A stretch of 60,893 nucleotides of DNA, counting the filler. It is 3 parts of 3 records of this genome, joined end to end, with 100 filler letters (N's around TTAATTAATTAA, not from the genome) between each part and the next. Parts side by side here need not be neighbours in the genome. Positions count along the whole stretch, not along the records: positions 1 to 24,305 come from SRR20825006_590; 2 more parts are not named here. One strand, written 5' to 3'. The notes beneath the pieces were generated by a model. It worked only from the letters and a program-made list of their open reading frames with translations, did no database searches and was not told the DNA's origin. Shown piece by piece: positions 348 through 18,714 of the stretch. The stretch's first letter is position 1. Every line of letters starts with the position of its first letter. The position numbers were made by a program, and so were the translations under genes.

Positions 348-662
348 TCAGTCCACGGTAACGGGCAAATGCACCACAAGCCCGTCTAAATCCTCGCTCA
401 CTTTGATCTGACAGCTCAACCGCGAGCTGGGCCGCACCTCGTCTTCGGCACAGTCCAACAAATCCTCTTCGCCTTGGCTCGCCTCTCCGGTGCGTGCGTC
501 TTCAATGTAGCAATGGCAGGTGGCGCACATCATTGCGCCGCCGCATTCGGCGAAAATACCGTCGATGCTATGGGCCAGTGCCGTCTGCATCACGCTGTCT
601 CCTGCGCGTGCGCTGACGGTCTGGCTGCGGCCGTCGGGTTGGACGAATGTGATTTTCGTCAT
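348..662 (-). CDS. 2Fe-2S ferredoxin, putidaredoxin/adrenodoxin type
   Basis: CGGAMMCATCH and SRLSCQI motifs; directly downstream of the P450. Confidence 0.95.
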   Translation of the reverse strand: MTKITFVQPDGRSQTVSARAGDSVMQTALAHSIDGIFAECGGAMMCATCHCYIEDARTGEASQGEEDLLDCAEDEVRPSSRLSCQIKVSEDLDGLVVHLPVTVD

Positions 663-2008: not shown

Positions 2009-2911
2009 GTGAGCAAGCCCATCGACCTTCTGGCCACAGATTTTCGCGCCCTTGATGTGTTGGTCCGGGTTTACCGCTTTGGCTCATTCACGCGCGCCGC
2101 CGAAGATCTTGAGATGAATCAATCGGTTGTCAGCTACACCATCGATAAGCTCAGAGGCGTGTTCGACGATCCACTGTTTGTTCGCGAGGCGCGTCGGCTG
2201 ATCGCGACGCAGCGCTGCGAAGAGGTGGTGGCGGAGGCGGGTCAGTTGTTGGAACGGTTTTCCCAACTGACGGCCAATCGCGATTTCGATCCGAAAGAAA
2301 GCACTCAGACGGTGACCATTGCCTGCAACTACTATGAGCGCGAGTTGATCATTCCGCACCTGGCCCATTTGATCCGCGCCGAAGCGCCGAACCTTAAAAT
2401 CGAGATTATCGATTCTTCCTATCTCGGCCATGATAAACTGTTGCGGATGGAGGCGGATTTGCTGATCGGTCCCTTCGTTCAACTGGGGGCCGCGTTTTAT
2501 ACGCGCACGCTCTATGAGGACCATTATGTTTGCATGATGGACCCGGCCCATCCAAAGGCCAAAACGGCGCTGACGATGGAGGATTACCTGACCCTCGATC
2601 ACGTCTACATCACCTACGGCGGCAAATGGAAATCGGGCTATATGCAGACCTTGGAACAAGAGGGCCACGAGATTTCCATCGCGATGCGCACGCCCAGCCC
2701 GGCGGGCATTCAAAGTCTGATCAAAGGCACCGGACTTGTCGCGACGGTGCCCGAGCGCCTGTCGCGCAAACTTGGGACGGGGCTTTTCATTGCGCGTTGT
2801 CCGGTGCCAACACCGGTGCAAATTCAGATGGTGTGGACCGCGCGCACCCATGCCTCGCGGATGCACAAATGGCTGCGCGATCTGGTGGTGCAAAGCGCGC
2901 GCAGGATGTAG
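2009..2911 (+). CDS. LysR family transcriptional regulator (NahR/DntR/NodD-like)
   Basis: N-terminal HTH SFTRAAEDLEMNQSVVSYTIDKLR...DDPLFVR; LysR substrate-binding domain; divergent from the P450. Confidence 0.93.
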   Translation: MSKPIDLLATDFRALDVLVRVYRFGSFTRAAEDLEMNQSVVSYTIDKLRGVFDDPLFVREARRLIATQRCEEVVAEAGQLLERFSQLTANRDFDPKESTQTVTIACNYYERELIIPHLAHLIRAEAPNLKIEIIDSSYLGHDKLLRMEADLLIGPFVQLGAAFYTRTLYEDHYVCMMDPAHPKAKTALTMEDYLTLDHVYITYGGKWKSGYMQTLEQEGHEISIAMRTPSPAGIQSLIKGTGLVATVPERLSRKLGTGLFIARCPVPTPVQIQMVWTARTHASRMHKWLRDLVVQSARRM

Positions 2912-2922
2912 TCCGCGGACAG

Positions 2923-4530
2923 TTAGACCGGGTTTTTGAGCCGGTAATCCAATTTCGGACGGCTCAGGCCCAATAGGCGGGCGGCGGCGGAGACATTGCC
3001 ATCGGCCTCTGCCACCGCCCGCTGTTCGATCCGCGACACCAATGCATCCACACCGATCCCCGCCTCAAAGAGTGGCACAAGCTGATCCCAAAGCTCGACA
3101 AAATCATCCTCGCCCTGCGACAGTGAGGGGGCCGAAGGCCGTGGATCAAGTCGCGCGGAGTCGAGATCATTGCGGTCAATCACCGGCGGCGCGGCGGCAC
3201 AGAGCGCGGCGCGCATCAGGGTCGCACGCAATTCGGGCAGGTTTCCGGGCCAAGCGGCGGTGCGGATGAAAGCCTTCGCCTCTTCTGTGAGCGAGGGTGC
3301 CTCAAGCCCCGGTTTTGGCCGCATCTGGGCCAGATAACACTCTGCCAGATCGGCAAGGTCATCCGGGCGCGCGGACAGCGGCGGCATTGCGGCAGGCAGG
3401 ACAGAGAGCGCGTACATCAACTCGGACCGCAGCGCCGTGTCGCGCCTTAACAGTTGCAGCGGCAGATGCGATAACCCGATGACAAGAAGGTTTTCAGGGG
3501 GGATGCCATCGGTTTTGATCATGTCGATCAACGCCACCTGAAGATCATCCGCCAACGCGTCGATCCCCTCGATGATCAACGTCTGCCCGCGCACGCCGGG
3601 GGCGGAGATGGTTTGGCGCAGGCTGTCCAAAAGCGCGGGCAGCTGTGGCGATGTGGCGTGACAGCGGTGGGTCTTGCCGTGACCAAACCGCGCGACATGG
3701 AGCCAATCGGCGGCGATGCGACAGCCCGCCCCCTCTGGTCCGGTGATCAACGCGTTCAGCCCAGCGTGAGCGATTTTTTCCAATGTGTGACGAACGGGAG
3801 CGACAACCCGGTCTTCCAATCCCGCGCCCTCCATCGGCGCGGACTTGCCCGCAGCCTTTCGGAGGCGCGAGGGCATTTCGGCCCGGTTGACCAAGACCTC
3901 ATCCAGGAACATCCGAACAAAGGGATCATCCTTGCCCCAACCGTCCACGGTCTTGCCCACCACGCGGCAGGATTTGTCACCCATCGCCGCACAGCTCACC
4001 TCTTTGTAGAGCACGAGTTTGCGAAAAAAGACGCTGGCGTAACCTGCCGCATAGCCGGTTTGGGCCCAGCAGACCGGGGCAAGCGCGCGCCCGTGGCGGC
4101 GTTGATATTCGACGGCTTCGACGGATTGATGCCATAGGAAGTCACCGGAAAACCGATCTGTTTTGAAATCAAAGTCGTTGTGCAGGGTCTCTACCCGCAC
4201 GGTGCCCGTCACCATATGTAGCCGAGTTCCGGCGGTGAATGCGTCGCCAATGTCCAGATTCGGCCAGCCTTGGCGAATGAATTCCGCATCCTCGCGCCCG
4301 TTGCGATAGCCCAAGCGCATCAGGAGCACCTTGGCCTCGTGTTCGCCAAACCGGCGGACCAATTCGTCCTGAAGGTCGGCGCCAAAGGTCGCGCGAGACA
4401 GCACCATCCGTGCGCCATGTAGCTCAATCGCGCCTTTCGAGGGGCTGAACTCAAGCGTGTCGATCAGGTCCGCCAGGGTCGGACGGCCCCCGCGGTGGAG
4501 GAGTTGTTCTTCGTCATCTGATGTTTTCAT
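2923..4530 (-). CDS. XylR/DmpR-like regulator: XylR_N + V4R sensor, degenerate AAA+ domain, Fis HTH
   Basis: XylR_N (LEFSPSKGAIELHGARMVL), V4R (VCWAQTGYAAGYAS...KEVSCAAMGDKSC), C-terminal GNVSAAARLLGLSRPKLDYRLK; AAA+ motifs degenerate. Confidence 0.9.
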   Translation of the reverse strand: MKTSDDEEQLLHRGGRPTLADLIDTLEFSPSKGAIELHGARMVLSRATFGADLQDELVRRFGEHEAKVLLMRLGYRNGREDAEFIRQGWPNLDIGDAFTAGTRLHMVTGTVRVETLHNDFDFKTDRFSGDFLWHQSVEAVEYQRRHGRALAPVCWAQTGYAAGYASVFFRKLVLYKEVSCAAMGDKSCRVVGKTVDGWGKDDPFVRMFLDEVLVNRAEMPSRLRKAAGKSAPMEGAGLEDRVVAPVRHTLEKIAHAGLNALITGPEGAGCRIAADWLHVARFGHGKTHRCHATSPQLPALLDSLRQTISAPGVRGQTLIIEGIDALADDLQVALIDMIKTDGIPPENLLVIGLSHLPLQLLRRDTALRSELMYALSVLPAAMPPLSARPDDLADLAECYLAQMRPKPGLEAPSLTEEAKAFIRTAAWPGNLPELRATLMRAALCAAAPPVIDRNDLDSARLDPRPSAPSLSQGEDDFVELWDQLVPLFEAGIGVDALVSRIEQRAVAEADGNVSAAARLLGLSRPKLDYRLKNPV

Positions 4531-4768
4531 GACGGGATATTACGCAAATGATAAAGTCATTTCACCATATAATTAATCTGCACCGCAGAAAGACTGCGAC
4601 ATTCTGGCACAATGCGAAGTTTTTATCGCAGGTAACCCCATGACATAAATCGCAATTCCTGGGCATTTTGCCCGTGCTGCAAAGCGGCGTAAATTATTTG
4701 CTTTGACGCAAATCCTCCCGACCGATCTGTTGAGTGCTGCCCTTGAAAACGGGCGAAAGGGAGGACTT

Positions 4769-5284
4769 ATGACACAGCAAAACCTTATCACGAAACTGCC
4801 GCCGGAGCCGCATGAGGCGATGATCAATCGCTTTGGCAAAGAAGGGGCGTTCATCCCCGGAGATGACAAAAATAACCCTTGGGTGCCGTTTGGCGACAGT
4901 GCCGCGATCAAACATCTGGCCTTTGATGTGCGCAGCAATTCGGTGGCCAATATTCTCTGGGTCAAAGGCGGTGGACGGATCGGCACGCACAAACATCGCG
5001 GTGTCGTTTCGGCGGTCACATTGGAGGGATCTTGGGGCTATTACGAATACGACTGGATTTCTCGTCCGGGCGATTTTGTTTATGAATTGCCGGGCACGGC
5101 GCACACGCTCTATTCCGACGATCCCAATGGCATGAAGGCGCTGTTCTGGATCAACGGGGCGATCGAATTTTTTGACGATGAAGCCAAGTATGATTTCACG
5201 GCGGATGTGTTTTGGTTCATCGACCATTACGTCAAGCATTGTGAGGCCAATGGCCTAGAGATCAACAAAGATATGTTCATCTGA
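4769..5284 (+). CDS. 2,4'-dihydroxyacetophenone dioxygenase (DAD)-family cupin
   Basis: HKHRGVVSAVTLEGSWGYYEYDW...GDFVYELPGTAHTL, with a three-His metal site as in DAD-like cupins; RBS AGGGAGGA before ATG 4769. Confidence 0.8.
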   Translation: MTQQNLITKLPPEPHEAMINRFGKEGAFIPGDDKNNPWVPFGDSAAIKHLAFDVRSNSVANILWVKGGGRIGTHKHRGVVSAVTLEGSWGYYEYDWISRPGDFVYELPGTAHTLYSDDPNGMKALFWINGAIEFFDDEAKYDFTADVFWFIDHYVKHCEANGLEINKDMFI

Positions 5285-5312
5285 TCCTGCGGGACCGAAG
5301 GGAGGAGACCGC

Positions 5313-6149
5313 ATGTCTTTGGAGAGCATGTTCGATGTGGCAGGCAAATCTGTCCTTGTGACGGGGGCCGCTTATGGCTTGGGTCGGGCCTATGCCGAGA
5401 TCATGGCCGCGCAGGGCGCGCATGTGAGTTTGCTTGATCTGAACGCGGATCAGCTTGCGCGCACCGTGGCGGAGATCGCCGCCACAGACCCGCGCGGCAC
5501 GATCCACGCAGAGGTGGTTGACGTGACCGACCGCGCGGCAATGGATGCGGTGTTTGACACCGTCTCAGTGCGTCAGGGCGGCATCGACGTGGTGTTTGCC
5601 AATGCGGGTGTGGATGCCGGGCCGGGGTTCTTGACCCCCGAAGGCCACCGCAACCCGGACGGCGAGATCGACAATCTCGATGACGCCCATTGGGATAAGG
5701 TGATCGGGATCAATCTGACCTCGATCTACTACACGATGAAACTTGCCGCCCGGCATATGAAACGGCAAGGACGCGGCGGGTCGATCATCGCCACCTCGTC
5801 AATTGCGGCCTTTTATGTCGATGGCATCGTCGGCACGCCCTACATGCCCGCAAAGGCCGGGGTCAGCCATCTGGTCAAACAGTTGGCGATGGAGCTTGGC
5901 CGCTACGGCATCCGCGTCAATGCGATCTGTCCGGGGCCGTTCATCACCAATATTGCCGGGGGGCGGATGGCGAATGCGGAGGATCGTCAGGCTTTCGTTC
6001 GCTGGTCCTGTCTGGGCCGTGTGGCCGAGACCGAGGAGATCAAGCCGCTGGCGCTTTATCTGGCCTCGAACGCCTCCGGCTATGTCACCGGATCGCAAAT
6101 GGTGATCGACGGCGGGCTGATCCTACGCCCCGCGCCGGAACTCGACTGA
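5313..6149 (+). CDS. SDR family NAD(P)-dependent oxidoreductase
   Basis: TGAAYGLG, ANAG, catalytic YMPAK, VNAICPG, VIDGG. Confidence 0.93.
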   Translation: MSLESMFDVAGKSVLVTGAAYGLGRAYAEIMAAQGAHVSLLDLNADQLARTVAEIAATDPRGTIHAEVVDVTDRAAMDAVFDTVSVRQGGIDVVFANAGVDAGPGFLTPEGHRNPDGEIDNLDDAHWDKVIGINLTSIYYTMKLAARHMKRQGRGGSIIATSSIAAFYVDGIVGTPYMPAKAGVSHLVKQLAMELGRYGIRVNAICPGPFITNIAGGRMANAEDRQAFVRWSCLGRVAETEEIKPLALYLASNASGYVTGSQMVIDGGLILRPAPELD

Positions 6150-6262
6150 CCACGGCGTGCGGCCCGCGAAGGCCGCCCGCCATACAGCACGACATAGCAC
6201 AGGCGTCACGACCAAGGGCTTGGAGGAGCTCCGTGACGCATAAAATTAAGGGAGGACCTAAC

Positions 6263-7561
6263 ATGACACTGAACATCCATCCGCACAGCCATCTTGACCG
6301 GCGCAGCCTGCTTAAGGGGTTGGGGGCGGTCACCGCCGCCACCATCGCACTGCCCCATGCGGCACGGGCCAAGGGGGCAAAGACCATCAAGATCGGGGTG
6401 ATCAGCCCAATGACCGGACCGCTGTCGCTGTTTGGCGACACCGATGATTATACCGTCACCAAGATCATGGATTTGGTCAAAGACGGGATCGAGATCGGCG
6501 GAGAGACCTATAATGTTGAAATCCTGTTGCGGGATGCGCAATCGAACCCCAACAAAGCGGCCGAACTCGCCGGTGATTTGATCCTCAACGACGAGGTGCA
6601 TTTTATGTTGCCCGCCTCGGCCACAGACATCAACAACCCGACCGCAGATCAGTGCGAACTCTACGGCGTGCCCTGTATCTCGTCGAACTCGCCCTGGCAG
6701 GCCTTTGTCATGCCGCGTGGCGGGGCCGAACAGCCGTTCGATTGGACCTATCACTTCTTTTGGGGTCTTGAGGACGTGTTGGGCACGTTCACCGGCATGT
6801 GGAAATCCATCGACACCAACGGCAAGGTCGGGATGCTGTTCCCACGCAACGCCGACGGTGAAACCTGGGGGAGTGACGAATACGGTCTGCCGCCTGCCGT
6901 GCGGGCCGCGGGCTTTGAGGCCTTCGCGCCGTCGATGTTTGAGCCGCGCACCAATGATTTCTCCGCCCAGATCGCAGAGTTCAAAAACAACAATTGTGAG
7001 ATCGTCGGTGGCATCACCTATGTCGCTGATCTCAAAACCTTTATCACCCAGTGCAACCAACAAAACTATCACCCCAAAGTGGTGACTGTGGCGGCGGCAC
7101 TTTTGTTCCCGTCCGGGATCGAGGCGATGGGCGATTTGGGCGTGGGGATGTCCTCTGAAGTCTGGTGGACGCCTGCCTTCCCTTACACCTCTTCGCTAAC
7201 TGGCCAAACCAGCCGCGACATTGCAGATGCTTGGGAGGCGGAAACCGGCAATCAATGGACCCAACCTTTGGGCTATGCGCATGCACTCTGGGAGGTCGTT
7301 CTCGACACCCTCAAACGCTCTGAGGACCCGCTGGACCGGGCGGCCAACCGCGATGCGCTCAAATCCACCGATCTCGACACGCTTGTTGGCACCATCCGCT
7401 TTGGCGATGGCCCGCATCCGAACATCTGCAAAACGCCGATTTTTGGCGGCCAATGGGTTAAAGGCGAAACATGGCCGTTCGATCTCAAGATTGTGGACAC
7501 GTCGCTTCATCCCGATGTGCTTCAACCCGAAGCGGAAATGCTCCCGCTGGACTGGTCATAA
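6263..7561 (+). CDS. LIV/HAAT-type ABC transporter substrate-binding protein, Tat-exported
   Basis: DRRSLLKG twin-arginine signal; IKIGVISPMTGPLSLFG; DFSAQIAEFK; heads the ABC operon. Confidence 0.9.
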   Translation: MTLNIHPHSHLDRRSLLKGLGAVTAATIALPHAARAKGAKTIKIGVISPMTGPLSLFGDTDDYTVTKIMDLVKDGIEIGGETYNVEILLRDAQSNPNKAAELAGDLILNDEVHFMLPASATDINNPTADQCELYGVPCISSNSPWQAFVMPRGGAEQPFDWTYHFFWGLEDVLGTFTGMWKSIDTNGKVGMLFPRNADGETWGSDEYGLPPAVRAAGFEAFAPSMFEPRTNDFSAQIAEFKNNNCEIVGGITYVADLKTFITQCNQQNYHPKVVTVAAALLFPSGIEAMGDLGVGMSSEVWWTPAFPYTSSLTGQTSRDIADAWEAETGNQWTQPLGYAHALWEVVLDTLKRSEDPLDRAANRDALKSTDLDTLVGTIRFGDGPHPNICKTPIFGGQWVKGETWPFDLKIVDTSLHPDVLQPEAEMLPLDWS

Positions 7562-7570
7562 GGCGCAGCC

Positions 7571-8299
7571 ATGACAGATCAGGCGATTTTGTCAGCGAAA
7601 GGGCTGACCAAGCGCTTCGGCGCACTCACCGTGGTGGAAGACGTCAGTTTTGACGTTGGCCGCGGTGAGGTGCTGGGCATTCTCGGGCCGAATGGTGCGG
7701 GGAAAACCACGTTGTTCAACCTGATCAGTGGCGATTTGGCCGCGAATGGGGGGGAGCTGTCTTTGGACGGCTCTCCACTGCGGGCCGAGCCGCCGTTCAA
7801 ACGCTGCAAACGTGGGATTGGGCGCACCTATCAGGTGCCCCAACCCTTTGGCGCGATGACAGCCTTTGAAAACCTGTTGGTGCCGGCGATGATGAGTGCG
7901 CGGATGAGCGAGGCGGAGGCCAATGACCATTGTGCCGAGGTGCTGCGTGACTGTGGGCTGTTGCCCTATGCCAACACGGCGGCGGGCAGTCTGACGCTGT
8001 TGAACCGCAAACGGCTTGAACTGGCGCGTGCACTTGCGGGGCGGCCCAAACTTTTGCTGCTCGACGAGATCGCGGGCGGTTTGACCGAAGCGGAAGGCGC
8101 CGAACTGGTCGAATTGGTGCGCCGGGTGCGCGACCAAGGCGTGACCATCATTTGGATTGAACATGTGCTGCACGCGCTCATGGCGGTGGCAAACCGGGTC
8201 ATGGTGCTCAATTTTGGCGTCAAAATCGCCGAAGGCACTCCCGACGCCGTCATGCAAGACGCCGAGGTGCAGCGCGTTTACATGGGGATCGAAGCATGA
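7571..8299 (+). CDS. LIV-type ABC ATPase (LivG-like)
   Basis: GPNGAGKTT, LLLLDEIAGGL, IEH motifs. Confidence 0.93.
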   Translation: MTDQAILSAKGLTKRFGALTVVEDVSFDVGRGEVLGILGPNGAGKTTLFNLISGDLAANGGELSLDGSPLRAEPPFKRCKRGIGRTYQVPQPFGAMTAFENLLVPAMMSARMSEAEANDHCAEVLRDCGLLPYANTAAGSLTLLNRKRLELARALAGRPKLLLLDEIAGGLTEAEGAELVELVRRVRDQGVTIIWIEHVLHALMAVANRVMVLNFGVKIAEGTPDAVMQDAEVQRVYMGIEA

Positions 8300-9030
8300 G
8301 TGACACACCCATTTTATCGACGCATGGCCTCACAGGAGGCTACGGCGATTTTCAGGCGCTGTTTGGCATCGACATGCACATTGATGCGGGCGAAGTCGTT
8401 GCCCTGATCGGTGCGAACGGAGCCGGGAAATCGACGTTTCTGAAATCCATTTTCGGCCTCTTGCCGGTGGATCGGGATATGGTGAAATTCGAGGGCAACC
8501 CTGTTGGCGGGACGCCCGCCCATATGATGGTTCGGCGCGGCATCGCCATGGTGCCCGAAGGACGCAGGCTTTTTGTCGGCATGACGGTCGAGGAAAACCT
8601 GCGCATCGCGATTGACAATGCGCGCCTGCCGGAAGGCGAGGGGCCATGGACCCGCGAGCACCTGTTCGATCTGTTTCCGATCCTGCGTGAAAAACGGCGG
8701 CAACCGATTGAAGATCTGTCCGGCGGACAACAGCAAATGGTTGCGATTTCGCGCGCGCTTTTGTGCCAGCCCAAGGTGCTGTTGTGCGACGAGATCAGTC
8801 TGGGTCTTGCGCCCAAAGTGATCCGCGAAATTTACGAAATCCTCCCGGAAATCTGCGCCTCTGGCACCGCCATTGTGTTGGTCGAACAAGACGTAGGCCT
8901 CGCGCGAGAGGCCTCAAATCGGCTGTATTGTATGCTCGAAGGACGTATCACATTGACTGGCGTCTCACAGGACATCTCCCGCGACGCCATCGCCGCGGCC
9001 TATTTTGGAGCGTCTCATGCAGTGGCTTGA
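8296..9030 (+). CDS. LIV-type ABC ATPase (LivF-like)
   Basis: GANGAGKST, VPEGRRLF, LSGGQQQM, DEISLGLAP. Confidence 0.93.
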   Translation: MSDTPILSTHGLTGGYGDFQALFGIDMHIDAGEVVALIGANGAGKSTFLKSIFGLLPVDRDMVKFEGNPVGGTPAHMMVRRGIAMVPEGRRLFVGMTVEENLRIAIDNARLPEGEGPWTREHLFDLFPILREKRRQPIEDLSGGQQQMVAISRALLCQPKVLLCDEISLGLAPKVIREIYEILPEICASGTAIVLVEQDVGLAREASNRLYCMLEGRITLTGVSQDISRDAIAAAYFGASHAVA

Positions 9031-9877
9031 TGCAGTGATCCAGGGCGTCCTTTTGGGCGGAATGTATGCGCAATATGCGCTGGGCATGGCGTTGATGTTT
9101 GGCGTGATGCGGATCGTCAATATCGCCCATGGCGATGTGATGATCCTCTTGTCTCTCATCGCCGTCTCATTGGCTGGGGTGCTGCCCTTTGGCAATCTCG
9201 GGCTCATCGTTGTGATCGTGCCGATCGCGGTGGTGATCGGGTGGATTTTACAAAAGTTCATCCTGAACAAAGTGGTCGGTGCCGATCCTTTGCCCTCGCT
9301 CATAGCCACCTTCGGCCTGTCCATCGCCTTACAGAATTTCATGTTGGAACTCTGGTCGGCGGACACGCGCAGCCTGCCCAATTCCGACATCGCCAGCGCG
9401 AGTTTTCAGATCGGTTCGATCTATGTCGGGCTCTTGCCGGTGATCGTTTTGATCACGGCTCTGGTGCTGACCGGCGGGTTGGACGCGGTGCTGCGGTTTT
9501 CGCGCTTTGGTCGCGGCCTACGCGCCGCGGCCGCCGACACAGAAGCCGCCGCGATGACCGGGGTCGACCCCAAACGCATTTATGCGATCGCCACAGCCAT
9601 TGCCGTTGGCATTCTGGGGCTGGCCGCCGTGTTTGCCGCATTGCGGGCCACGGTGTCGCCCTCTGATGGTTCGGCCCAGTTGATCTACGCGTTTGAAGCG
9701 GTGATCATCGGTGGCATGGGCTCGGTCTGGGGGGCGTTTCTGGGCGCGATGGTGCTTGGCGTGGCACAGGCCATCGGTCTTCGGATTGATCCGGGTCTGG
9801 GTATTCTTTTCGGACATCTCGTCTTTCTCGCGGTGCTGGCCACACGGCCCGAAGGCATCATGGCGCGCAAAAAATGA
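9017..9877 (+). CDS. LIV-type ABC permease (LivH-like)
   Basis: FGVMRIVNIAHGD, IIGGMGS; hydrophobic. Confidence 0.92.
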   Translation: MQWLDAVIQGVLLGGMYAQYALGMALMFGVMRIVNIAHGDVMILLSLIAVSLAGVLPFGNLGLIVVIVPIAVVIGWILQKFILNKVVGADPLPSLIATFGLSIALQNFMLELWSADTRSLPNSDIASASFQIGSIYVGLLPVIVLITALVLTGGLDAVLRFSRFGRGLRAAAADTEAAAMTGVDPKRIYAIATAIAVGILGLAAVFAALRATVSPSDGSAQLIYAFEAVIIGGMGSVWGAFLGAMVLGVAQAIGLRIDPGLGILFGHLVFLAVLATRPEGIMARKK

Positions 9878-10899
9878 GGCAGGGACACATGACATCAAAA
9901 ACACATCACACCGAGGTCGTCCGCGCGACCCGATCCAGCCGGATCGCCATGACGCTGTGCCTCGCTCTTCTCTTGGCCCTCATCGCCATGCCGTGGTGGG
10001 CCAGTTCGGGCAATATCCGCTGGGCCATCGAACTGTCGTGCTACATCGCCATTGCGCAGATGTGGAACTTGCTGGCGGGCTATGCCGGGCTGGTCTCCGT
10101 CGGCCAACAAGCCTTTATCGGCGTCTCGGGCTATCTGCTTTTCGTTCTGGCGCAGAATTTTGGCGTGAACCCATTTGTTGCTGTGCTTCTGTCGCTGATT
10201 GCGCCTGCGATCTTGGCGGTGCCGACCTACCTGTTGCTGCGGCGTCTGGACGGGCCGTATTTTGCCATCGGCACATGGGTTGTGGCCGAAGCGGTGCGGC
10301 TGGCGACCTCGAACATTGATTATGTCAACGCGGGGGCGGGTCTGACCTTGCGGGTGATGACCCAATATAGCCAGCATGAGCGCGAGGTCGGCTTTGTCCT
10401 GCTCTGTGCGCTCCTGCTGCTCACCACCATTGGCGGCAGCTATTGGTTGTTGCGTTCGCGCATTGGGCTTGCACTGACGGCGATGCGTGACAATCCAGTG
10501 GCCGCTGCCAGCCAAGGCGTCAATGTCGGTCGGTTGCGGTTCTACATCTTTATCGCGGCGGCGGTTGGCACAGGCTTTGCCGGAGCGATCTATTATATGG
10601 CGCAGCTCAGGATCACACCGTCGGCGGGCTTTGATCCGTTTTGGGGCTCGATGTCGATTTTCATCGTCATGGTGGGTGGCATTGGTGCGATTGAGGGCGT
10701 GTTGATCGGCGCGTTGATCTATTTCCTCGCCGACCGTCTGTTTGGCGAATTCGGCTCGGCCTATTTGATCGTGCTGGGCCTGCTCACCTTGGTGATTGCG
10801 CTCTACGCGCGGGGCGGGGTCTGGGGTCTTCTCCAAAAATGGGGAGATCACGCGTGGTTCCCGGTTCGGCGTAAATTGATCGTGGAGGAAAACCCATGA
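9874..10899 (+). CDS. LIV-type ABC permease (LivM-like)
   Basis: WNLLAGYAGLVSVGQQAF, RLDGPYFAIGT, MVGGIG. Confidence 0.92.
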   Translation: MRQGHMTSKTHHTEVVRATRSSRIAMTLCLALLLALIAMPWWASSGNIRWAIELSCYIAIAQMWNLLAGYAGLVSVGQQAFIGVSGYLLFVLAQNFGVNPFVAVLLSLIAPAILAVPTYLLLRRLDGPYFAIGTWVVAEAVRLATSNIDYVNAGAGLTLRVMTQYSQHEREVGFVLLCALLLLTTIGGSYWLLRSRIGLALTAMRDNPVAAASQGVNVGRLRFYIFIAAAVGTGFAGAIYYMAQLRITPSAGFDPFWGSMSIFIVMVGGIGAIEGVLIGALIYFLADRLFGEFGSAYLIVLGLLTLVIALYARGGVWGLLQKWGDHAWFPVRRKLIVEENP

Positions 10900-11906
10900 A
10901 GGCCGCCGTTTTCAAGGCTTTGGGCCAACCGCTTTGCCTCAATGAGGTGGCGCAACCCGAGGCGGGGCGTGGGCAAGTGCTGCTCAAAGTCTGTCGATGT
11001 GGCATCTGTGGCTCGGATTTGCACATGACCGAAGACGCCACCTTTGGCCTTCAGGGCGGCGAGGTGATTGGTCATGAATTTTCGGGAGAAGTGATCGACG
11101 TGGGCGCGGGTGTGACCCACCTCAAACCCGGAGATCACGTCTCGGCCGCCCCACTCAAAGGCTGTGGCACCTGTCCCGCGTGCCTGCGTGGCGAACCGGC
11201 GTGGTGTCCAAAGTTTACCCTCATTGGCGGTGGCTTTGCCGAATATGCCGCGCTGGATGAAATGCAGTGCCGCAAATTACCGTGGGGTATTTCCGCCACT
11301 GACGGCGCTTTGGCCGAACCTCTGGGCGTGGCGCTGCATGGGATCATGCGGGCAAAGATGAGGCCGGGCGCGCGCGTGGTGATCATTGGGGCCGGGGCCA
11401 TCGGCCTTGCCGTGGCGTTTTGGGCGCGGCGCATGGGCGCGGCCTGCGTCGTCGTGGTCGACATGCATGATCACCAACGCGAGCGGGCCATGCAACTCGG
11501 CGCGACGGATTTCATCGTGTCAGACCTGGAGCTTGCTCACAAACTGACCCAGGCCTGCGACGGCCCGCCAGAGATGGTGTTCGAATGCGTTGGAAAACCG
11601 GGGCTGATTGACCATTGTGTCGATCTTGTTGCCCCACGTGGAAAGGTCGTTGTTCTGGGGCTTTGTACTGCTCCCGATCACATGAACAGCTTTCGCGCCA
11701 TCTCCAAAGAGGTCGAGATTGTGATGTCGGTGTTTTTCAACATGGCAGAGTTTGAAATGGCGATCCGCGCGCTGGATGCCGGAACCTATGCGCCGCAGCA
11801 TTTGATTTCGGACACGGTGACGCTCGCCGAGATGCCACTGGCGTTTGAGGCGCTGCGTCAGCGCACGACACAATGCAAAGTGATGGTCGATCCAAGTGCC
11901 GGCTGA
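10896..11906 (+). CDS. Zn-dependent medium-chain alcohol dehydrogenase
   Basis: CGICGSDLH, GHEFSG, structural Zn site CGTCPAC...C, GAGAIG; overlaps the permease stop codon. Confidence 0.93.
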   Translation: MKAAVFKALGQPLCLNEVAQPEAGRGQVLLKVCRCGICGSDLHMTEDATFGLQGGEVIGHEFSGEVIDVGAGVTHLKPGDHVSAAPLKGCGTCPACLRGEPAWCPKFTLIGGGFAEYAALDEMQCRKLPWGISATDGALAEPLGVALHGIMRAKMRPGARVVIIGAGAIGLAVAFWARRMGAACVVVVDMHDHQRERAMQLGATDFIVSDLELAHKLTQACDGPPEMVFECVGKPGLIDHCVDLVAPRGKVVVLGLCTAPDHMNSFRAISKEVEIVMSVFFNMAEFEMAIRALDAGTYAPQHLISDTVTLAEMPLAFEALRQRTTQCKVMVDPSAG

Positions 11907-11949: not shown

Positions 11950-12861
11950 TTAAAGAGGAGAAGCGCCCGCATTTGGGCGTTTCATGTCGCGTTTGAGCCA
12001 GGTGAGGCACGCGATCAGGTGCGGGTGATTCGCGCGCTCTTCTGGGCGCAAAACCCAATAGCTCTCGGGGGACGTCACCGCTGGCCCAAATGGCTCCCAA
12101 AGTCGCCCTTGGCGAAGGTCGTCTTCGACATAAAGCCGCGGCACCACGGCCAATCCGAGCCCAGCACGGGCTGCTGGGGTAAGCAGGCCACTGTGGCCCA
12201 GCCGCACGCCCCGGATCGCGCCGCTGTGCGCGGTGCCCGAGAGGCGCAGCCATGTCATCCAAAGACTCGGACGGGCGGCATTTTGCAGCGTGGGGATCTG
12301 TGCGAAATCGAGATGATCCAAAGGGGCGCTGGGCGGGATCAGCGTGGGAGCGGCGACGACGGTGAGTGTTTCGGCGCAGAGCCGATCACTGCGTACATCA
12401 GAAACCGCACCGGTGCCTCGCACAATGGCCAGATCGGCGGGAGATGTGGAAAAGTCACAGGCCCCCTCCGCCTCGATCACCTCTAAAATAACCTCTGGGT
12501 GGGCGGCGAGAAATCCGCCGAGCCGCGGCAAAAGCCAACATGCGGCAAACCCAGGACTGGTCTGAAGAATCAAAGCCTCTTCGCGCCGTTGCCCGCGCAC
12601 AGCATCCAGCGCCGCTTTTTCCAATCTGGCCAAAAGCGGGTCAATCTCGCGCCAATACTGCGCCCCGACCTCGGTCAGCACCAGCCGCGATCCAATCCGT
12701 TGAAACAGGCGCACCCCGAGAAACTGCTCCAGCGTGCCGATCTGTCGGCTCACCCCGCTTTGGGTGAGGCCAAGGTCTTCGGCGGCGCGGGTAAAGCTGC
12801 GATGGCGCGCGGCCAGATCAAAGCACTCAAGTGCGGAGAGGGAGGGGATGAAACGGCGCAA
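11950..12861 (-). CDS. LysR family regulator, GcvA-like
   Basis: RRFIPSLSALECFDLAARHRSFTRAAEDLGLTQSGVSRQI. Likely TTG start at 12861 after AGGAG; ORF track starts at 12915. Confidence 0.92.
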   Translation of the reverse strand: MRRFIPSLSALECFDLAARHRSFTRAAEDLGLTQSGVSRQIGTLEQFLGVRLFQRIGSRLVLTEVGAQYWREIDPLLARLEKAALDAVRGQRREEALILQTSPGFAACWLLPRLGGFLAAHPEVILEVIEAEGACDFSTSPADLAIVRGTGAVSDVRSDRLCAETLTVVAAPTLIPPSAPLDHLDFAQIPTLQNAARPSLWMTWLRLSGTAHSGAIRGVRLGHSGLLTPAARAGLGLAVVPRLYVEDDLRQGRLWEPFGPAVTSPESYWVLRPEERANHPHLIACLTWLKRDMKRPNAGASPL

Positions 12862-12898
12862 GGACGCGCTCCTTTTGGAACAGGCATGGTGAAGATTG

Positions 12899-12970
12899 TC
12901 ATGAGTAAAAGTCATGACAGAATGTACATTTCAACCATTTTATTTTCTCTATCATGTGTCATTGTCATGA
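12899..12970. promoter_or_regulatory. Twin LysR operator palindromes TCATG-N9-CATGA
   Basis: TCATG-AGTAAAAGT-CATGA at 12899-12917 and TCATG-TGTCATTGT-CATGA at 12952-12970. Confidence 0.7.
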
Positions 12971-13038
12971 AAGATGTCCGGTCGTGCCACAGGCAAAGGG
13001 ACCACATCACAGTCTTTCTGATTTCAAATGGACCCGTC

Positions 13039-14331
13039 ATGACACAGCCGCAGGGCAAACATATCGCCGTCATCGGCGCCGGAATTGTCGGCATCAGCAC
13101 CGCCGCCGCACTTCTGAAAGATGGGCACCGTGTAACGGTGATTGACCCGGCCTCGCCCGGAGGCCCCCATGCCGCCAGCTATGGCAACGGCGCGTTCATC
13201 AGCCCGGCGTCGATCCTGCCGGTGTCGCAACCCGGTCTGTGGCGCAAAGTGCCGAAAATGCTGGCCGATCCACGCGGGGCGTTGACCATCCGCTGGCGTG
13301 ATCTGCCTGTGCTGATGCCGTGGCTTGTGCGGTTTCTCTGGGCCGGGGCGACCAGAGAGAAAGTGGCACGGACGGCGCGTGCACTCTCCAGTCTTTTGGC
13401 GGATGCGCCGAAGCGCCATGCCGATCTGGCCGCCCGTGCGGGACTGTCGGATATGATCGTCCAAAACGGCTTGCTCTACGCCTTTCGGGAGCGGGCGGAG
13501 TATGAGGCGGAGGCGTTTGGCTGGGGGCTGCGCCGCGACACTGGCGTGGCGATGGCTGAGATTGAGGGGCAGGCTTTGCGCCGCGCCGCCCCCGCGCTTG
13601 ATCCTGCGTATCGGTTTGGCGTCCTGATCAACGACGGGGCGCATTGCACCGACCCCGGCGGCTATGTGGCCGGGCTTGCCGACTGGCTAACCGGGCAGGG
13701 CGTGGTGGTCCGGCGGGGCCGGGTGATCGGGTTTGACCTCTGCGTGGGGCGATTGCGCGGGCTGCGCTGTGCCGATGGCAATCTGGCCTGCGATCTGGCG
13801 GTGATTGCGGCGGGTCTGGCCTCCGCTCCGCTTGCCGCGTCCTTGGGAGACCCGGTGCCTTTGGCCGCCGAGCGCGGCTATCATGTGGAGCTCAGAGAGG
13901 CGCCGTTCACGCTCGACATTCCGATCATGCCGCAGGATGGCAAAATGGCCAATGTCACCACCCGTGGCGGCCTGCGCGCCGCAGGACAGGTGGAACTCGC
14001 CGCGCCAGATGCGCCGCCAAATTGGGCGCGGGCCGAAATCCTTTTTGAGCATCTGAAACAGAGCTACCCGGCTCTGTCAGGGGCGACAGTTTCACAGGCG
14101 GCGCGCTGGCAAGGCAATCGGCCCTCGACGCCGGACGGCAAGCCCGTGATCGGTCGATCCACCCGGTCCAAAGATGTGGTCTACGCCTTTGGGCACGGCC
14201 ACATCGGCCTCGCATCGGCTCCGATGACCGCGGCGTTGGTCGCGGATTTGGTCGCTGGACGCCACCCCGCCCGCGACCTAACGTCTTTCTCACCGACCCG
14301 CTTTTCCCTGAGACAAAGAGAGACCCGATGA
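13039..14331 (+). CDS. FAD-dependent D-amino acid dehydrogenase/oxidase (DadA family)
   Basis: IGAGIVGIS, ASYGNG, ERGYH, GNRPSTPDGKPVIG, AFGHGHIGL. Confidence 0.9.
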   Translation: MTQPQGKHIAVIGAGIVGISTAAALLKDGHRVTVIDPASPGGPHAASYGNGAFISPASILPVSQPGLWRKVPKMLADPRGALTIRWRDLPVLMPWLVRFLWAGATREKVARTARALSSLLADAPKRHADLAARAGLSDMIVQNGLLYAFRERAEYEAEAFGWGLRRDTGVAMAEIEGQALRRAAPALDPAYRFGVLINDGAHCTDPGGYVAGLADWLTGQGVVVRRGRVIGFDLCVGRLRGLRCADGNLACDLAVIAAGLASAPLAASLGDPVPLAAERGYHVELREAPFTLDIPIMPQDGKMANVTTRGGLRAAGQVELAAPDAPPNWARAEILFEHLKQSYPALSGATVSQAARWQGNRPSTPDGKPVIGRSTRSKDVVYAFGHGHIGLASAPMTAALVADLVAGRHPARDLTSFSPTRFSLRQRETR

Positions 14332-15986
14332 CATCCTCCAAACCTCTGACCGCTTTCGGTCCTGATTTCACCTTTGCCTATGATGATTGGCTCGCCCATC
14401 CGGCCGGGTTGGGCACCGTGCCGGGTGACAGCCATGGTGCGCAGGTGGCGATCATTGGGGCTGGTGCCGCAGGCGTGATTGCGGCCTATGAGCTGATGAA
14501 ACTGGGGCTGCGCCCGGTGATTTACGAGGCCTCGCGTTTTGGTGGGCGGCTGCGCTCTGAGGTGTTTGATGGCACCCAAGATGTGATTGCAGAGATGGGA
14601 GGGATGCGGTTTCCGATCTCGTCCGCGAGCTTTTATCACTACCTAAACTTGATGGGATTGCAGACAAAACCTTTTCCAAATCCGCTCACAAAGGCCGCAG
14701 GGTCCACTGTGATCGACCTTGAGGGCGAGACGCTTTTCGCGCGCGATCTCAATGATTTGCCCGATATGTATCGCGAAATTGCGGCAGCTTATAGCGATGC
14801 TTTGGAGCAGGGGGCCGGTTTTGGCGCGTTGCAAGCGGCCATTCGGAACAAGGACGCAGTGCAGGTCAAGGCGCTCTGGGACCCCATCGTCGAGGCCTGG
14901 GATGAGCGCACGTTTTATGACTTTGTCACAAGCTCGCAGGCCTTTCAAAACCTGAGCTTTCGCCATCGCGAGGTCTTTGGCCAAGTCGGATTTGGCACCG
15001 GTGGATGGGATTCAGATTTCCCCAATTCCATGCTCGAAATCCTGCGGGTCAATCTTTTGGGCTTCGATGACGATCAACGCTATGTGGTCGGTGGGGTCGA
15101 GAGTGTCTTGCGCCGCCTTTGGACCGCCACGCCGCCCTGCGCGCATTGGCCCGAGGGCACCTCGCTGGCCTCTCTGCATGGTGGCGCAACCCGGTCTCGG
15201 GTGACGCATATTTCCCGTGCGGCGTCTGACACATCCTTCACGGTGCGCGACCAATGGGACAACGAAGTCGCCTATGAGGCGGTGCTCGCAACCTGCCAGA
15301 GTCACCTTTTGACCACAGCGATTGATGTCGAAGAAGACCTGTTTGCCCAACCGCTTTGGATGGCACTTGATCGCACGCGCTACATGCAGGCGGCGAAGAC
15401 ATTTGTGATGGTGGATCGACCATTCTGGAATGACATTGACCCCGCTACAGGGCGACCTCTGTTGTCGATGACGTTGACCGACCGGATCACGCGGGGCACC
15501 TATTTCTTTGACAACGGGCCGGACGCGCCGGGGGTGATCTGCCTGTCTTATTCCTGGATGACGGATGCATTGAAGCTTCTGCCGTTGTCGGATGAAAAGC
15601 GGGTTGATTTGGCCTTGAACGCCTTGGAGAAAATCTATCCCGGCGTGGATATTGCCTCTCATATTCGTGGCGTGCCGAAATGCATCAGTTGGGAGGCGGA
15701 CGAGAATTTCCTTGGGGCGTTCAAGGGCGCTTTGCCGGGGCATTATCGCTATAATCGCCGTGTCTATGGCCATTTCATGCAGGCGGATCAGCCCGCCGCA
15801 CATCGCGGTATGTTCCTTGCGGGCGACAGTGTGAGCTGGACGCCAGCATGGGTCGAAGGCGCGGTTCAGACCGCTTTGAACGCGGTTTGGGGCATCATGA
15901 CCCACTTTGGTGGGGCCTCAAATGCGGTCAATCCGGGGCCGGGCGATGTCTATCAGGATCAGGGTCCGGTGGCCCTGTCTCAGTAG
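14328..15986 (+). CDS. Flavin amino-acid 2-monooxygenase (lysine 2-monooxygenase DavB / tryptophan 2-monooxygenase IaaM family)
   Basis: FGPDFTFAYDDWLAHPAGLG, EMGGMRFP, FGQVGFGTGGWDSDFPNSMLEILR, GAFKGALPGHYRY, AWVEGAVQTALNA. Confidence 0.88.
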   Translation: MTSSKPLTAFGPDFTFAYDDWLAHPAGLGTVPGDSHGAQVAIIGAGAAGVIAAYELMKLGLRPVIYEASRFGGRLRSEVFDGTQDVIAEMGGMRFPISSASFYHYLNLMGLQTKPFPNPLTKAAGSTVIDLEGETLFARDLNDLPDMYREIAAAYSDALEQGAGFGALQAAIRNKDAVQVKALWDPIVEAWDERTFYDFVTSSQAFQNLSFRHREVFGQVGFGTGGWDSDFPNSMLEILRVNLLGFDDDQRYVVGGVESVLRRLWTATPPCAHWPEGTSLASLHGGATRSRVTHISRAASDTSFTVRDQWDNEVAYEAVLATCQSHLLTTAIDVEEDLFAQPLWMALDRTRYMQAAKTFVMVDRPFWNDIDPATGRPLLSMTLTDRITRGTYFFDNGPDAPGVICLSYSWMTDALKLLPLSDEKRVDLALNALEKIYPGVDIASHIRGVPKCISWEADENFLGAFKGALPGHYRYNRRVYGHFMQADQPAAHRGMFLAGDSVSWTPAWVEGAVQTALNAVWGIMTHFGGASNAVNPGPGDVYQDQGPVALSQ

Positions 15987-16015
15987 CGAAACAGGACGTT
16001 TTTGCCAGCCGCTTT

Positions 16016-16044
16016 ACCCCTAAGTCCGTGACGGATTTAGGGGT
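16016..16044. repeat. Inverted repeat (terminator or REP-like hairpin)
   Basis: ACCCCTAAGTCCGT-G-ACGGATTTAGGGGT, 14-bp arms with one G-T mismatch, 30 bp after the monooxygenase stop. Confidence 0.6.
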
Positions 16045-16138
16045 GTTAAATGTGATTTAAGATGTTGTTTTTTATTTACAAAAATTTATTTTGATGGTTG
16101 TTTTGGTGAGCTTTCCTCCTGACAAAAGGCCCGCCTCC

Positions 16139-16915
16139 ATGACCGAACATCACAGTGCTTCGCAGCGTAAAATTGGCATCATTGGTGCGGGTAAAATCGG
16201 CTGCGCCATCTACGAGGCCCTGGCCGAGATGGCGGGGGTTGAGATCTCCTATATGCTGGCCGGTCGGCGCCGTCCCGAAGGGGTGCCCGAGGCGCTGATC
16301 CTGACGGACATGGCGCAGGCGCTGGCCCGAGATGTGGACTTGGTGATCGAAGCCGCCGTGCCGGAGGTGATCCACGAACACGGCGCGGCGATCTTGGCCA
16401 AAAGCGATCTGTGCGGGTTTAGCTGTACCGCGCTGTCCGTGCAGCAGACCGAGCAGGCGTTGCGCACGGCCTGTGCCACACATGGCACGCGGTTTTTTGT
16501 CCCCCATGGCGCGGTTCTGGCACTGGATGGTTTGGCCGATGGGCGCGATGTGATTGAACGCGTGAGCATCACGACGATCAAAAGCGGGCCGAGCCTTGGC
16601 CTGTCTGAGACGGCCGAGGGGGCGGTTTTTGAAGGCTCGGCGCGTGAGGCCTGTCTTACATTCCCGCGCAATGTGAACGTGCATGCCGCCGTTGCACTGG
16701 CCGGGCTTGGATTTGACCGCACGGTCAGCCGAGTGGTGGCCGAGCCGGGTAAAAAGACGATGGAGCATCATATTCACGTTGAAGGGCAGGGGCTTGAATG
16801 GGACATCCGTGTGGCGTCGCAGTCCTTGGGCGGGGTGAGCGGGGCCTATACGCCGCGGTCTGCCGTGGGCACGGTGCGGCGTATTCTGGGTGGGGCGGGC
16901 GTGACCATCGCGTAA
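16139..16915 (+). CDS. Aspartate dehydrogenase-like protein (NadX/DUF108 family)
   Basis: IGIIGAGKIG, DLVIEAA, VPHGAVLALDG, FEGSAREAC...FPRNVNVHAAVALAG. Confidence 0.85.
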   Translation: MTEHHSASQRKIGIIGAGKIGCAIYEALAEMAGVEISYMLAGRRRPEGVPEALILTDMAQALARDVDLVIEAAVPEVIHEHGAAILAKSDLCGFSCTALSVQQTEQALRTACATHGTRFFVPHGAVLALDGLADGRDVIERVSITTIKSGPSLGLSETAEGAVFEGSAREACLTFPRNVNVHAAVALAGLGFDRTVSRVVAEPGKKTMEHHIHVEGQGLEWDIRVASQSLGGVSGAYTPRSAVGTVRRILGGAGVTIA

Positions 16916-16932
16916 CGCCCGTGCGCCACTGG

Positions 16933-17757
16933 TCACATTGAAAAGGCTTTCATCAACATCCGCGCGGCGGTGATCAACAGGAAGACGGCGAAAATCCGTT
17001 TGAGCTTTTGCGCCGGAAGCCGATGCGCCAAAGCCGCGCCCATTGGAGCGGAGATCAGCGTCATCGAGATGGTAGCGGCAAAGGCCGGGAGGTTGATAAG
17101 GCCCAGCGAAAAGGGTGGCTTGCCTTCAAGTGCCCAGCCATGCAGCGCGAAACTCACCGAAGATGGCAGCGCGATCAAAAGGCCAAAGCCCGCCGCCGTG
17201 CCGACCGCGCGGTGCATCGTCAGGCCCGATAGCGTCAGGACCGGCACCCCAAAAGAGCCGCCGCCAATGCCCATGAGCACCGACAGAAAACCAATAGCCG
17301 TACTCAACGCCGAGCGAAACGGTTCGCGCGGCGGACGTTCGGTTCCGGTCTCTTTGAGGCCGCCAAAGGCCATTTGGGCCGAAACGATCATGCCCAAGAC
17401 ACCGAAGATGCCCAACAGGATTTGCGAGGACAGCCGGGTGGCGACGAAAGCGCCAATCACCGCGCCGATCACGATGCCGGGCGCCCAAGTTTTCAGGATG
17501 TCCATATCGACCGTGCCGCGTTTGCGATGCGATTGAACCGAGCGCAGGGAGGTCACGACAATGGTGGCCAACGAGGTGGCAACGCAGACCTGCATCAGAT
17601 GCGCGCTCTCATATCCCATTGAGGAAAAGAGAAAATAAAAGGCGGGGACAAGAACAATGCCACCACCAAGGCCCAAAAGTCCGGCAATAATGCCCGCGAT
17701 GAAACCGGTGGCGATGAGCACGGCGGCCAGTTCGAGGTAGAGCGTGATGTCGGTCAT
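16933..17757 (-). CDS. TauE/SafE (TSUP) family membrane transporter
   Basis: Duplicated GLLGLGGGIVLVP / LMGIGGGSFGVP motifs; very hydrophobic. Confidence 0.9.
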   Translation of the reverse strand: MTDITLYLELAAVLIATGFIAGIIAGLLGLGGGIVLVPAFYFLFSSMGYESAHLMQVCVATSLATIVVTSLRSVQSHRKRGTVDMDILKTWAPGIVIGAVIGAFVATRLSSQILLGIFGVLGMIVSAQMAFGGLKETGTERPPREPFRSALSTAIGFLSVLMGIGGGSFGVPVLTLSGLTMHRAVGTAAGFGLLIALPSSVSFALHGWALEGKPPFSLGLINLPAFAATISMTLISAPMGAALAHRLPAQKLKRIFAVFLLITAARMLMKAFSM

Positions 17758-17765
17758 GGTCTGGA

Positions 17766-18693: not shown

Positions 18694-18714
18694 TTTTGTA
18701 TATGGTATACTAAA
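18694..18714. promoter_or_regulatory. Candidate GntR-type operator palindrome
   Basis: TTTTGTATA-TGG-TATACTAAA in the AT-rich divergent intergenic region. Confidence 0.45.

Follow-up and report, generated by a model that had tools for sequence, protein, structure and literature searches.

The gene cluster at positions 4769-11906 of the window (the whole stretch of DNA analysed, 60,893 nucleotides, filler included) raises the question of which compound is taken up and cleaved by its products, a cupin, two dehydrogenases and an ABC importer. We consider it quite probable that the operon serves the cleavage of an alpha-ketol of some phenolic substrate, and on balance we lean towards a peripheral funnel that converts a guaiacyl glycol to vanillate.

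Eight open reading frames (ORFs) were found here, all on the plus strand, in agreement with the sequence-only reading of this DNA, which had described eight co-oriented genes with the same outer coordinates. The first gene (4769..5284, 171 aa, with a GGAGG ribosome site) encodes a three-His cupin, predicted to be an Fe(II) dioxygenase resembling 2,4'-dihydroxyacetophenone dioxygenase (DAD). It is followed by a classical short-chain dehydrogenase/reductase (SDR; 5313..6149; YMPAK motif and acidic cofactor residue), a predicted benzylic (C-alpha) alcohol dehydrogenase; a LIV/HAAT-type solute-binding protein (SBP) of an orphan subfamily with a twin-arginine leader (6263..7561); two ABC ATPases, LivG-like (7571..8299) and LivF/UrtE-like (8296..9030); two ABC permeases, LivH/UrtB-like (9017..9877) and LivM/UrtC-like (9874..10899); and a zinc-dependent dehydrogenase of the medium-chain superfamily and polyol/diol type (10896..11906; CGICGSDLH, GHE and Glu as third ligand), predicted to be a second, stereocomplementary alcohol dehydrogenase (ADH). 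The intergenic gaps from the cupin through the ADH are 28, 113, 9, -4, -14, -4 and -4 bp. As had also been proposed, the unit is divergent from a V4R regulator, an XylR/DmpR-type protein (XylR_N, V4R, degenerate AAA+ and Fis helix-turn-helix domains) at 2923..4530 on the minus strand. The window genes share 99-100% identity with locus L001, titled Celeribacter baekdonensis B30, and the operon belongs to a strain of this marine species.

Among solved proteins, the best sequence matches of the cupin were DAD (phmmer E 1.5e-18; profile 8e-29) and the uncharacterised 3EBR. The cupin model (pLDDT 95.8) gave fold Z scores of 22.1 with 3EBR, 19.9 and 19.7 with DAD (4P9G and 5BPX), 17.2 with Dke1 and 13.6 with ChrR, Foldseek agreeing, and superposed on DAD with a root-mean-square deviation (rmsd) of 2.3 A over 144 residues, so that the protein, as modelled, has the monocupin fold of the DAD group. 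Residues H74, H76, H112, Y91 and E106 of the window cupin correspond to H76/H78/H114, Y93 and E108 in DAD numbering. We confirmed 188 cupin relatives in a genome scan, and locus counts refer to the best 80 of these 188; the three His, Y93 and E108 are kept in all 81 clade cupins of the 80 loci, and among 95 database homologues the window H112 is conserved only at the level of at least 90%. The ring-stacking Phe43/Phe129 of DAD are nearly always kept as well. The cupin thus shares with DAD of Alcaligenes sp. 4HAP (4P9G/5BPX; PMC4219425) the fold, 32-33% identity, the iron ligands, Tyr93, Glu108 and the Phe pair, and by analogy its alpha-ketol cleavage is likely the same. The cupin therefore appears DAD-like, as the sequence-only reading had held, and by sequence catalytically intact, and it does not group with the non-catalytic ChrR-like cupins (Z 13.6 with ChrR, about 20 with DAD). 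An atlas search gave automatic DAD-family names only, and in database records the clade members P0004, P0013, P0048 and P0069 are mis-annotated as 'tRNA modification GTPase'.

The substrate pocket is a different matter. DAD (EC 1.13.11.41) turns 2,4'-dihydroxyacetophenone and O2 into 4-hydroxybenzoate and formate. In DAD, W61 and D63 were modelled to hold the 4'-OH of the substrate, and S49 and Y153 line the far end (PMC4219425). Compared with DAD, the changes S49I, D63N, W137F, Y153F and M156H are fixed across the clade, and in the window subclade W61 is Val or Ala and F148 mostly Ala; the Trp61/Asp63 pair and the DAD pocket signature are hence not kept in the window cupin, which has V59/N61 and changes at a minimum of seven pocket positions, whereas orthodox DAD-type genes in the same loci retain the W/D pair. 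According to the published roles, several of these changes (S49I, W61V/A, D63N and Y153F) lie where the ring is bound, which is what a ring with other substituents would lead one to expect. They slightly favour a C2 side chain with a different ring, but the sphingomonad paralogues differ again at four positions. A maximum-likelihood tree placed the DAD-type rows on their own branch (SH-aLRT 97), apart from the window clade, with long branches flagged; it comes from a quick search, the careful one being unfinished, and the Alcaligenes enzyme itself is not among its sequences. Orthodox DAD lies in the same cluster as the clade cupin in L029, L030, L044, L046 and L081; it accompanies the clade cupin as a separate paralogue in 4/80 genome loci and in 27 of 38 long sphingomonad-type metagenome loci, a stable coexistence which implies different substrates. 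No orthodox DAD was found in the C. baekdonensis-type genomes G001 and G002. We infer that the cupin works like DAD yet is not its orthologue; the earlier view of a DAD-like enzyme thus stands in part, having missed the changed ring pocket and the separate clade. Two clusters hold three cupin types together, orthodox DAD, the Phe129 clade and a Gly129 clade (L044:5355-10516 and L081:11340-17604), and the L081 cluster further contains genes for a PCMH-like flavocytochrome c and a CoA ligase.

With SDR and ADH orthologues called at 44% identity or more and within 10 kb of the cupin, both were present in 62/80 loci, 56 of which also encode the SBP, in six gene orders over Alpha-, Beta- and Gammaproteobacteria. 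The eight-gene grouping is more than chance, and the neighbourhood analysis bears out the proposal that the dehydrogenases are partners of the cupin. The 18 loci lacking the pair include a 3-kb contig, five loci with an SDR and no ADH call (three short or cut, two with an ADH just below the threshold), four in which a GMC oxidoreductase directly 3' of the cupin replaces both dehydrogenases (L037, L038, L042 and L045), and eight distant loci of Acidobacteria/Actinobacteria (52-58%) that have neither dehydrogenase; CoA-ligase/thiolase genes adjoin three of these eight, and a PobA-like gene adjoins one. In loci of Pseudomonas, Marinomonas, Salinisphaera and Paenalcaligenes, an MFS transporter stands in place of the ABC importer. 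Two Rhodococcus plasmids carry pairs of related cupins, and behind one pair lie genes for an SDR and a 'butanediol dehydrogenase' that are not orthologues. Taken together, the GMC swap, the MFS swap and the Rhodococcus dehydrogenases indicate that the constant part of the module is a cupin plus alcohol oxidation. The unit is patchy, a close cupin being found in 4 of 301 sampled Rhodobacterales. Several further neighbours were observed: a MetE-like (Meth_synt_2) gene near distant cupins (L065, L070, L071, L072, L075 and L077; all cupins at most 64% identical); a further SDR (SDR2) with the module, with or without orthodox DAD (L029, L030, L044, L046, L051, L052, L057, L060 and L068), several of these loci having an AraC regulator instead of the XylR type; and, at L058:1820-8332, a module inserted beside a quinohemoprotein amine dehydrogenase and aldehyde dehydrogenase cluster.

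The YMPAK motif was found in 63/65 SDRs, and an acidic cofactor residue predicts NAD+ as cofactor; CGICGSDLH and GHE are kept in 63/63 ADHs, which resemble sorbitol, butanediol and threonine dehydrogenases. Models of butanediol, inositol and sugar dehydrogenases match both enzymes, in no case reaching the family cut-off. The twin-arginine signal of the SBP is a weak match (PF10518 E 6e-4, below cut-off). The sequence-only reading had argued from LIV-type SBPs often binding aromatics, an argument that finds no support here: the SBP has the LIV fold and at most 19% identity to the solved proteins listed, among which amino-acid and aromatic binders are interleaved and tie. The nearest SDR, ADH and SBP structures were considered as a guide to the substrate and set aside, all being distant and uninformative.

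The regulator provides a further hint of the substrate. In MopR, the phenol OH is anchored by H106 and W134 (PMC9556785). The equivalent residues H105 and W133 and the C-E-C-C zinc site are kept in the window regulator, whose XylR_N and V4R sensor is therefore of the XylR/DmpR type; 53 of 54 regulator matches share these anchors and zinc ligands, and in 48 the position of MopR P103 is Thr. None of the 48 regulators of the window type has GAFTGA, Walker A is broken in the window regulator, and no sigma54 (-12/-24) pattern was found in the 46 intergenic regions scanned; GAYTGA was found in five canonical regulators, those of four gammaproteobacterial loci and the second regulator in L053. The spacer of the window contains two palindromic operator-like sites of AphR/XylR type (TTnATCAnnTGATnAA), at 4540..4555 and, 21 bp after it, at 4561..4576, each with 2 mismatches, and a conserved TTGACG box on the plus strand at 4703..4708, a predicted sigma70 -35 element. 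The TTnATCAnnTGATnAA-like palindrome is present in 46/46 divergent spacers (10% in shuffles), two or more, mostly 21-22 bp apart, in 39/46 (0.7%), and TTGAC at -61 to -91 from the cupin ATG in all 46 loci (22%), counts that are partly circular because the pattern was drawn from the same sequences; the published AphR motif matches it (PMC6449761). A generic promoter/terminator scan gave chance-level counts and did not call the TTGACG box. MopR, PoxR and DmpR (PMC9556785, PMC6449761) share the His/Trp anchors, the zinc site and paired AphR-like palindromic operators, from which the window type differs in lacking GAFTGA (48/48), in Thr at P103, in operator distance (mostly 21-22 bp against 29-42) and in a -35 box in place of -12/-24. 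The regulator is likely a phenol-sensing, sigma54-independent activator. As an observation in its own right, the regulator type at 2923-4768 likely represents a branch of the phenol sensors that depends on sigma70 and whose operators are spaced by two helical turns, conserved in 46 loci.

Ring-cleavage enzymes were not found among the window ORFs scanned, including 35 ORFs from 17.8 kb on, and in G002, among the nearest genomes, pobA and pcaH lie together on a different contig; the product must therefore go to genes elsewhere, in line with the peripheral funnel proposed before. To characterise this product, 50 of the 63 listed module genomes were searched. All 50 contain pobA, compared with 201/301 Rhodobacterales. 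The benzoate routes are less common, with benA in 7 (at least 738 bits; 4 above cut-off), boxB in 17 and either in 24; both are absent from 26/50, G002 included. Phenylethanediol and benzoin, which had been suggested as test substrates, are thus poor guesses, because the regulator keeps its phenol-OH anchors and these 26 genomes have no benA or boxB. LigM-like O-demethylases were detected in 20 module genomes, VanA-like in 19 and the window-type P450 in 10, 45/50 having at least one. Among the 22 Rhodobacterales-type module genomes (21 so titled and one unplaced metagenome-assembled genome), 13 have a LigM that passes the curated cut-off, and the P450 (57% identity or more) occurred in the other 9, with no overlap (Fisher 2e-6); LigM or P450 was hence present in 22/22, compared with 56 of 197 pobA-positive Rhodobacterales controls, from which four module carriers had been removed, though the genomes are kin (~17 lineages) and the background search scored fewer candidates per genome. 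The controls show no such exclusion, 2 genomes having both genes where 3.3 would be expected. A clade cupin also lies close to vanA in L060 and to desA and vanA in L083, and a VanA-like gene occurs in 12 metagenome loci. The LigM/P450 pattern, the kinship of the P450 and the vanA/desA neighbours together point to a product that is probably methoxylated, most simply vanillate, which may tie in the P450 next to the operon.

This P450 (696..1874, minus strand), related to 6G71 and CYP255 (SyoA, GcoA), precedes a 2Fe-2S ferredoxin, its likely partner (348..662, minus strand), and is divergent from a LysR regulator (2009..2911, plus strand); in several other genomes, too, the P450 has beside it a divergent ORF that is LysR-type by its N-terminal sequence. 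It matches 6G71, which we take to be CYP1232A24, at E 6e-77 and SyoA at E 7e-51, and its I-helix Asn-Glu amide-acid pair aligns with NE of 6G71 and QE of SyoA. The family was found in 48/301 Rhodobacterales, in pobA-positive genomes only (48/201 against 0/100), and its neighbours in some genomes are pobA/pcaC/pcaQ, pcaGH or purU. No ferredoxin reductase lies 3' of the P450 pair in the window; one is present in L193, L195 and L200. The sequence match and the amide-acid pair are shared with the CYP255 (GcoA, SyoA)/CYP1232 O-demethylases (PMC11842817), from which the window P450 differs in belonging to a Rhodobacterales family with a separate ferredoxin and in having a substrate predicted from context. 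This uncharacterised family is a candidate undescribed aromatic O-demethylase for the product of the funnel.

Following the funnel to vanillate, the ABC importer would take up a neutral aryl-glycol, to judge from context vanillyl glycol (MHPG), guaiacylglycerol or guaiacylpropane-1,2-diol. With NAD+, the SDR and the ADH would then convert the (S) and (R) epimers of the C-alpha alcohol to the alpha-hydroxyketone, which the Fe(II) three-His cupin, judging from its observed ligands and fold, would cleave with O2 as DAD does, yielding vanillate and, depending on side-chain length, formate (C2) or acetate or glycolate (C3). Removal of the methyl group from vanillate would fall to LigM or VanAB encoded elsewhere or, in this strain, probably to the P450 next to the operon, all of them genes observed, and the demethylated product would enter ring cleavage by pcaGH. 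A phenolic effector likely activates the XylR-type regulator at the two operators and the sigma70-type promoter, and H-type (4-hydroxyphenyl) analogues may also be accepted. The order of dehydrogenation to an alpha-hydroxyketone followed by cupin cleavage was already part of the sequence-only reading, and it is supported as far as the DAD-like intact cupin and the conserved partners are concerned, unlike the substrate guesses and the SBP argument.

Previous studies of sphingomonads are consistent with such a route. In Novosphingobium MBES04, guaiacylglycerol-beta-guaiacyl ether (GGE) induced a cluster of four genes (for DAD, an SDR, a GroES-type protein and a 534-nt 'tRNA modification GTPase') 2.9-44.6x and lignin did so 7.6-88.6x, whereas vanillin did not; the promoter of the cluster responds to the compounds GHP, the strongest inducer, and DHA (PMC10866074). 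This cluster (G-II/L-III, MBENS4_1161-1158) resembles the window operon in the order of DAD, 534-nt gene, SDR and GroES-type gene (read as the ADH) and in induction by lignin fragments; the name of its 534-nt gene is the mis-name carried by several clade members, and its order matches the sphingomonad loci. It differs in its orthodox DAD, its AraC neighbour and the lack of an ABC importer, and the likeness is one of context, not of sequence. In strain SG61-1L, the gene for SDR 474 (SZ64_16365) lies between a pair of DAD-like genes and one for an alcohol dehydrogenase, and with NAD+ the enzyme oxidises alpha-S GGE only, at C-alpha (PMC4651090); that assay was on a dimer and of low efficiency, and orthology to the window SDR is suggested by context. 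The step from GP-1 or GD to vanillin or vanillate was left to 'unknown enzymes' (PMC8612281). The pathway had been called undescribed, which is correct in so far as the reports seen give no enzyme activity for any step and too strong in that the sphingomonad version has been published as lignin-induced (PMC10866074), with one of its SDRs assayed on GGE (PMC4651090); in the literature searched, with subscription journals and bioRxiv supplements outside reach, we found no characterisation of this cupin clade or operon.

Several points weigh against the vanillate funnel. All enzyme steps are predicted from genes, motifs, fold and co-occurrence, and the comparison with MBES04 and SG61-1L is an analogy of gene order, size and annotation name. 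The sphingomonad evidence transfers only in part, because the sphingomonad clade cupins have Y61/M131/N135/L148 where the window subclade has V-A61/I-L131/I135/A148. The SBP comparison points to no ligand. The P450 adjoins the module in 3/80 loci only, and its own substrate is predicted from context. The VanA-like genes are only 33-39% identical to a query that is itself divergent, which makes these calls weak (57/301 in the background), and 5/50 module genomes, all rhizobial-type, have no candidate O-demethylase; a search for VanA in these five gave only weak VanA_C matches. Finally, the module genomes are related to one another, and genes of this kind are numerous in rich aromatic degraders. 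Two additions to the pathway were considered and dropped. A PCMH-like flavocytochrome as a required upstream step (alkylphenol entry) had a strong match in 1/50 module genomes (3 at E<=1e-40); such a gene lies inside the module in N. humi and 6/38 sphingomonad-type loci. Sequential C3-to-C2-to-C1 shortening by orthodox DAD is not needed, because G001, G002, G014 and G021 have no DAD orthologue.

The same chemistry might act on an H-type glycol or glycerol to give 4-hydroxybenzoate, the demethylase link being a by-product of aromatic-rich strains. This would fit pobA in all 50 module genomes, the PobA-type genes within 10 kb in 2/80 loci, the induction of the MBES04 promoter by DHA (PMC10866074) and the five genomes without a demethylase. 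However, the 4-hydroxy C2 ketol is the substrate of orthodox DAD, a separate paralogue in 4/80 loci and 27/38 sphingomonad-type loci, the phenol-binding W61/D63 pair is replaced, and the comparison of LigM or P450 (22/22 against 56/197) was already made with a pobA-positive control, so we regard this substrate as unlikely. Distinctly unlikely, in our view, is a Dke1-like reaction, in which an arylpropane-1,3-diol or beta-hydroxypropiovanillone is oxidised at C-alpha by the SDR and at its terminal alcohol by the ADH or GMC enzyme, to give a beta-ketoaldehyde as substrate of the cupin. Dke1 (3BAL; PMC4019311), which acts on a beta-diketone, is likewise a three-His Fe(II) cupin cleaving an aliphatic C-C bond and is close in fold (Z 17.2, rmsd 5.1 A), though neither phmmer nor the profile matched it; GHP is the strongest inducer in MBES04 (PMC10866074); the GMC enzyme that replaces the dehydrogenases in 4 loci has a chloramphenicol-inactivating oxidoreductase as close solved relative; glyoxalase-family genes accompany 23/38 sphingomonad-type loci; and N. 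aromaticivorans has no VceAB homologues for later steps (PMC11837543). Yet Dke1 shares 13% identity with the cupin, compared with 33% for DAD, whose Tyr93/Glu108 are kept; MBES04 accumulates GHP and makes no energy use of it, although the cluster is induced (PMC10866074); and the ADH resembles secondary-alcohol polyol dehydrogenases.

The importer belongs to the amino-acid (HAAT) class, the top fold match of its SBP is a pyroglutamate binder, and the L058 module abuts an amine dehydrogenase cluster, all of which would suit the import of a beta-hydroxy-arylethylamine (octopamine/normetanephrine type) or its deamination product, with cleavage of an amino- or hydroxy-ketone by the cupin. We hold this to be improbable: such a neighbour was seen in 1/80 loci, the genes that recur near the module include neither a deaminase nor an amine oxidase, and the lignin induction data concern nitrogen-free compounds. 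Quite improbable, too, is an unsubstituted or non-aromatic substrate (phenylethanediol, benzoin, cyclohexane-1,2-diol or butanediol) giving benzoate or an aliphatic acid, for which the loss of the W61/D63 phenol contacts of DAD and the SDR/ADH scores against butanediol, inositol and sugar dehydrogenase models, below cut-off, might be adduced; the 26 module genomes without benA or boxB, G002 included, the phenol-OH anchors in 53/54 regulator matches and the enrichment of pobA and demethylase genes argue otherwise. That the cupin is a non-catalytic ChrR-like protein next to a branched-chain amino acid importer, the grouping being incidental, is very improbable: although its Pfam match is Cupin_7 (ChrR-like) and the components are LivG/F/H/M-like, the cupin, a single 171-aa domain without the N-terminal anti-sigma domain, scores 19.2 bits against a cut-off of 124.5 for the ChrR model TIGR02451, the SBP scores 38.9 against 477 bits for the LivJ model NF011933 and so misses the LivJ/K family threshold, the fold is nearer DAD than ChrR, and the module stays intact in six gene orders, with the MFS exchange in Pseudomonas, Marinomonas, Salinisphaera and Paenalcaligenes.

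Returning to the conversion of guaiacyl glycols to vanillate, the chemistry itself is known, so this is not a new kind of system. The present analysis adds a form outside the sphingomonads, whose cupin gene travels with those of two dehydrogenases and a separate importer; the exchange of the dehydrogenases for a GMC enzyme; a regulator that lacks GAFTGA, together with its operators; and the complementary occurrence of LigM and the P450. How guaiacyl ketols and diols lose their side chains is a recognised gap (PMC8612281), which the operon would fill if the reading is true; three small soluble enzymes would then turn mixed aryl-glycol stereoisomers into one aryl acid without CoA or ATP, which would be useful for lignin funnelling, and the DAD family would gain a first physiological pathway that goes further than a single enzyme. 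The way LigM and the P450 complement each other across genomes points to a candidate P450 O-demethylase in 48/301 Rhodobacterales, and bears on coastal bacteria using land-plant aromatics. More tentatively, and with clear doubt, DAD may belong to a set of dioxygenases that divide side-chain cleavage among themselves by lignin unit, with orthodox DAD acting on H-type ketols, this clade on guaiacyl and the Gly129 clade on syringyl ones; the operon would then supply the route still missing by which guaiacyl glycols, arylglycerols and Hibbert ketols (GP-1, GD) become vanillate, in bacteria ranging from marine Roseobacters to rhizobia, under a sigma54-independent XylR-type activator, with an undescribed P450 vanillate O-demethylase replacing LigM in many Roseobacters.

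RNA-labelled runs were considered as evidence of expression and set aside, being contigs with even depth over genes and spacer, which indicate presence only. Downstream of the operon, the region 11950-18725 forms a separate cluster of a LysR regulator, a D-amino-acid-oxidase-like flavoprotein, a flavin amine oxidoreductase, an aspartate-dehydrogenase-like protein, a membrane protein and an SDR, the first genes of which were found next to the module only in two C. baekdonensis loci. At 44476-60839 the window carries a flagellar gene cluster with a sigma54 activator, which has no relation to the operon.

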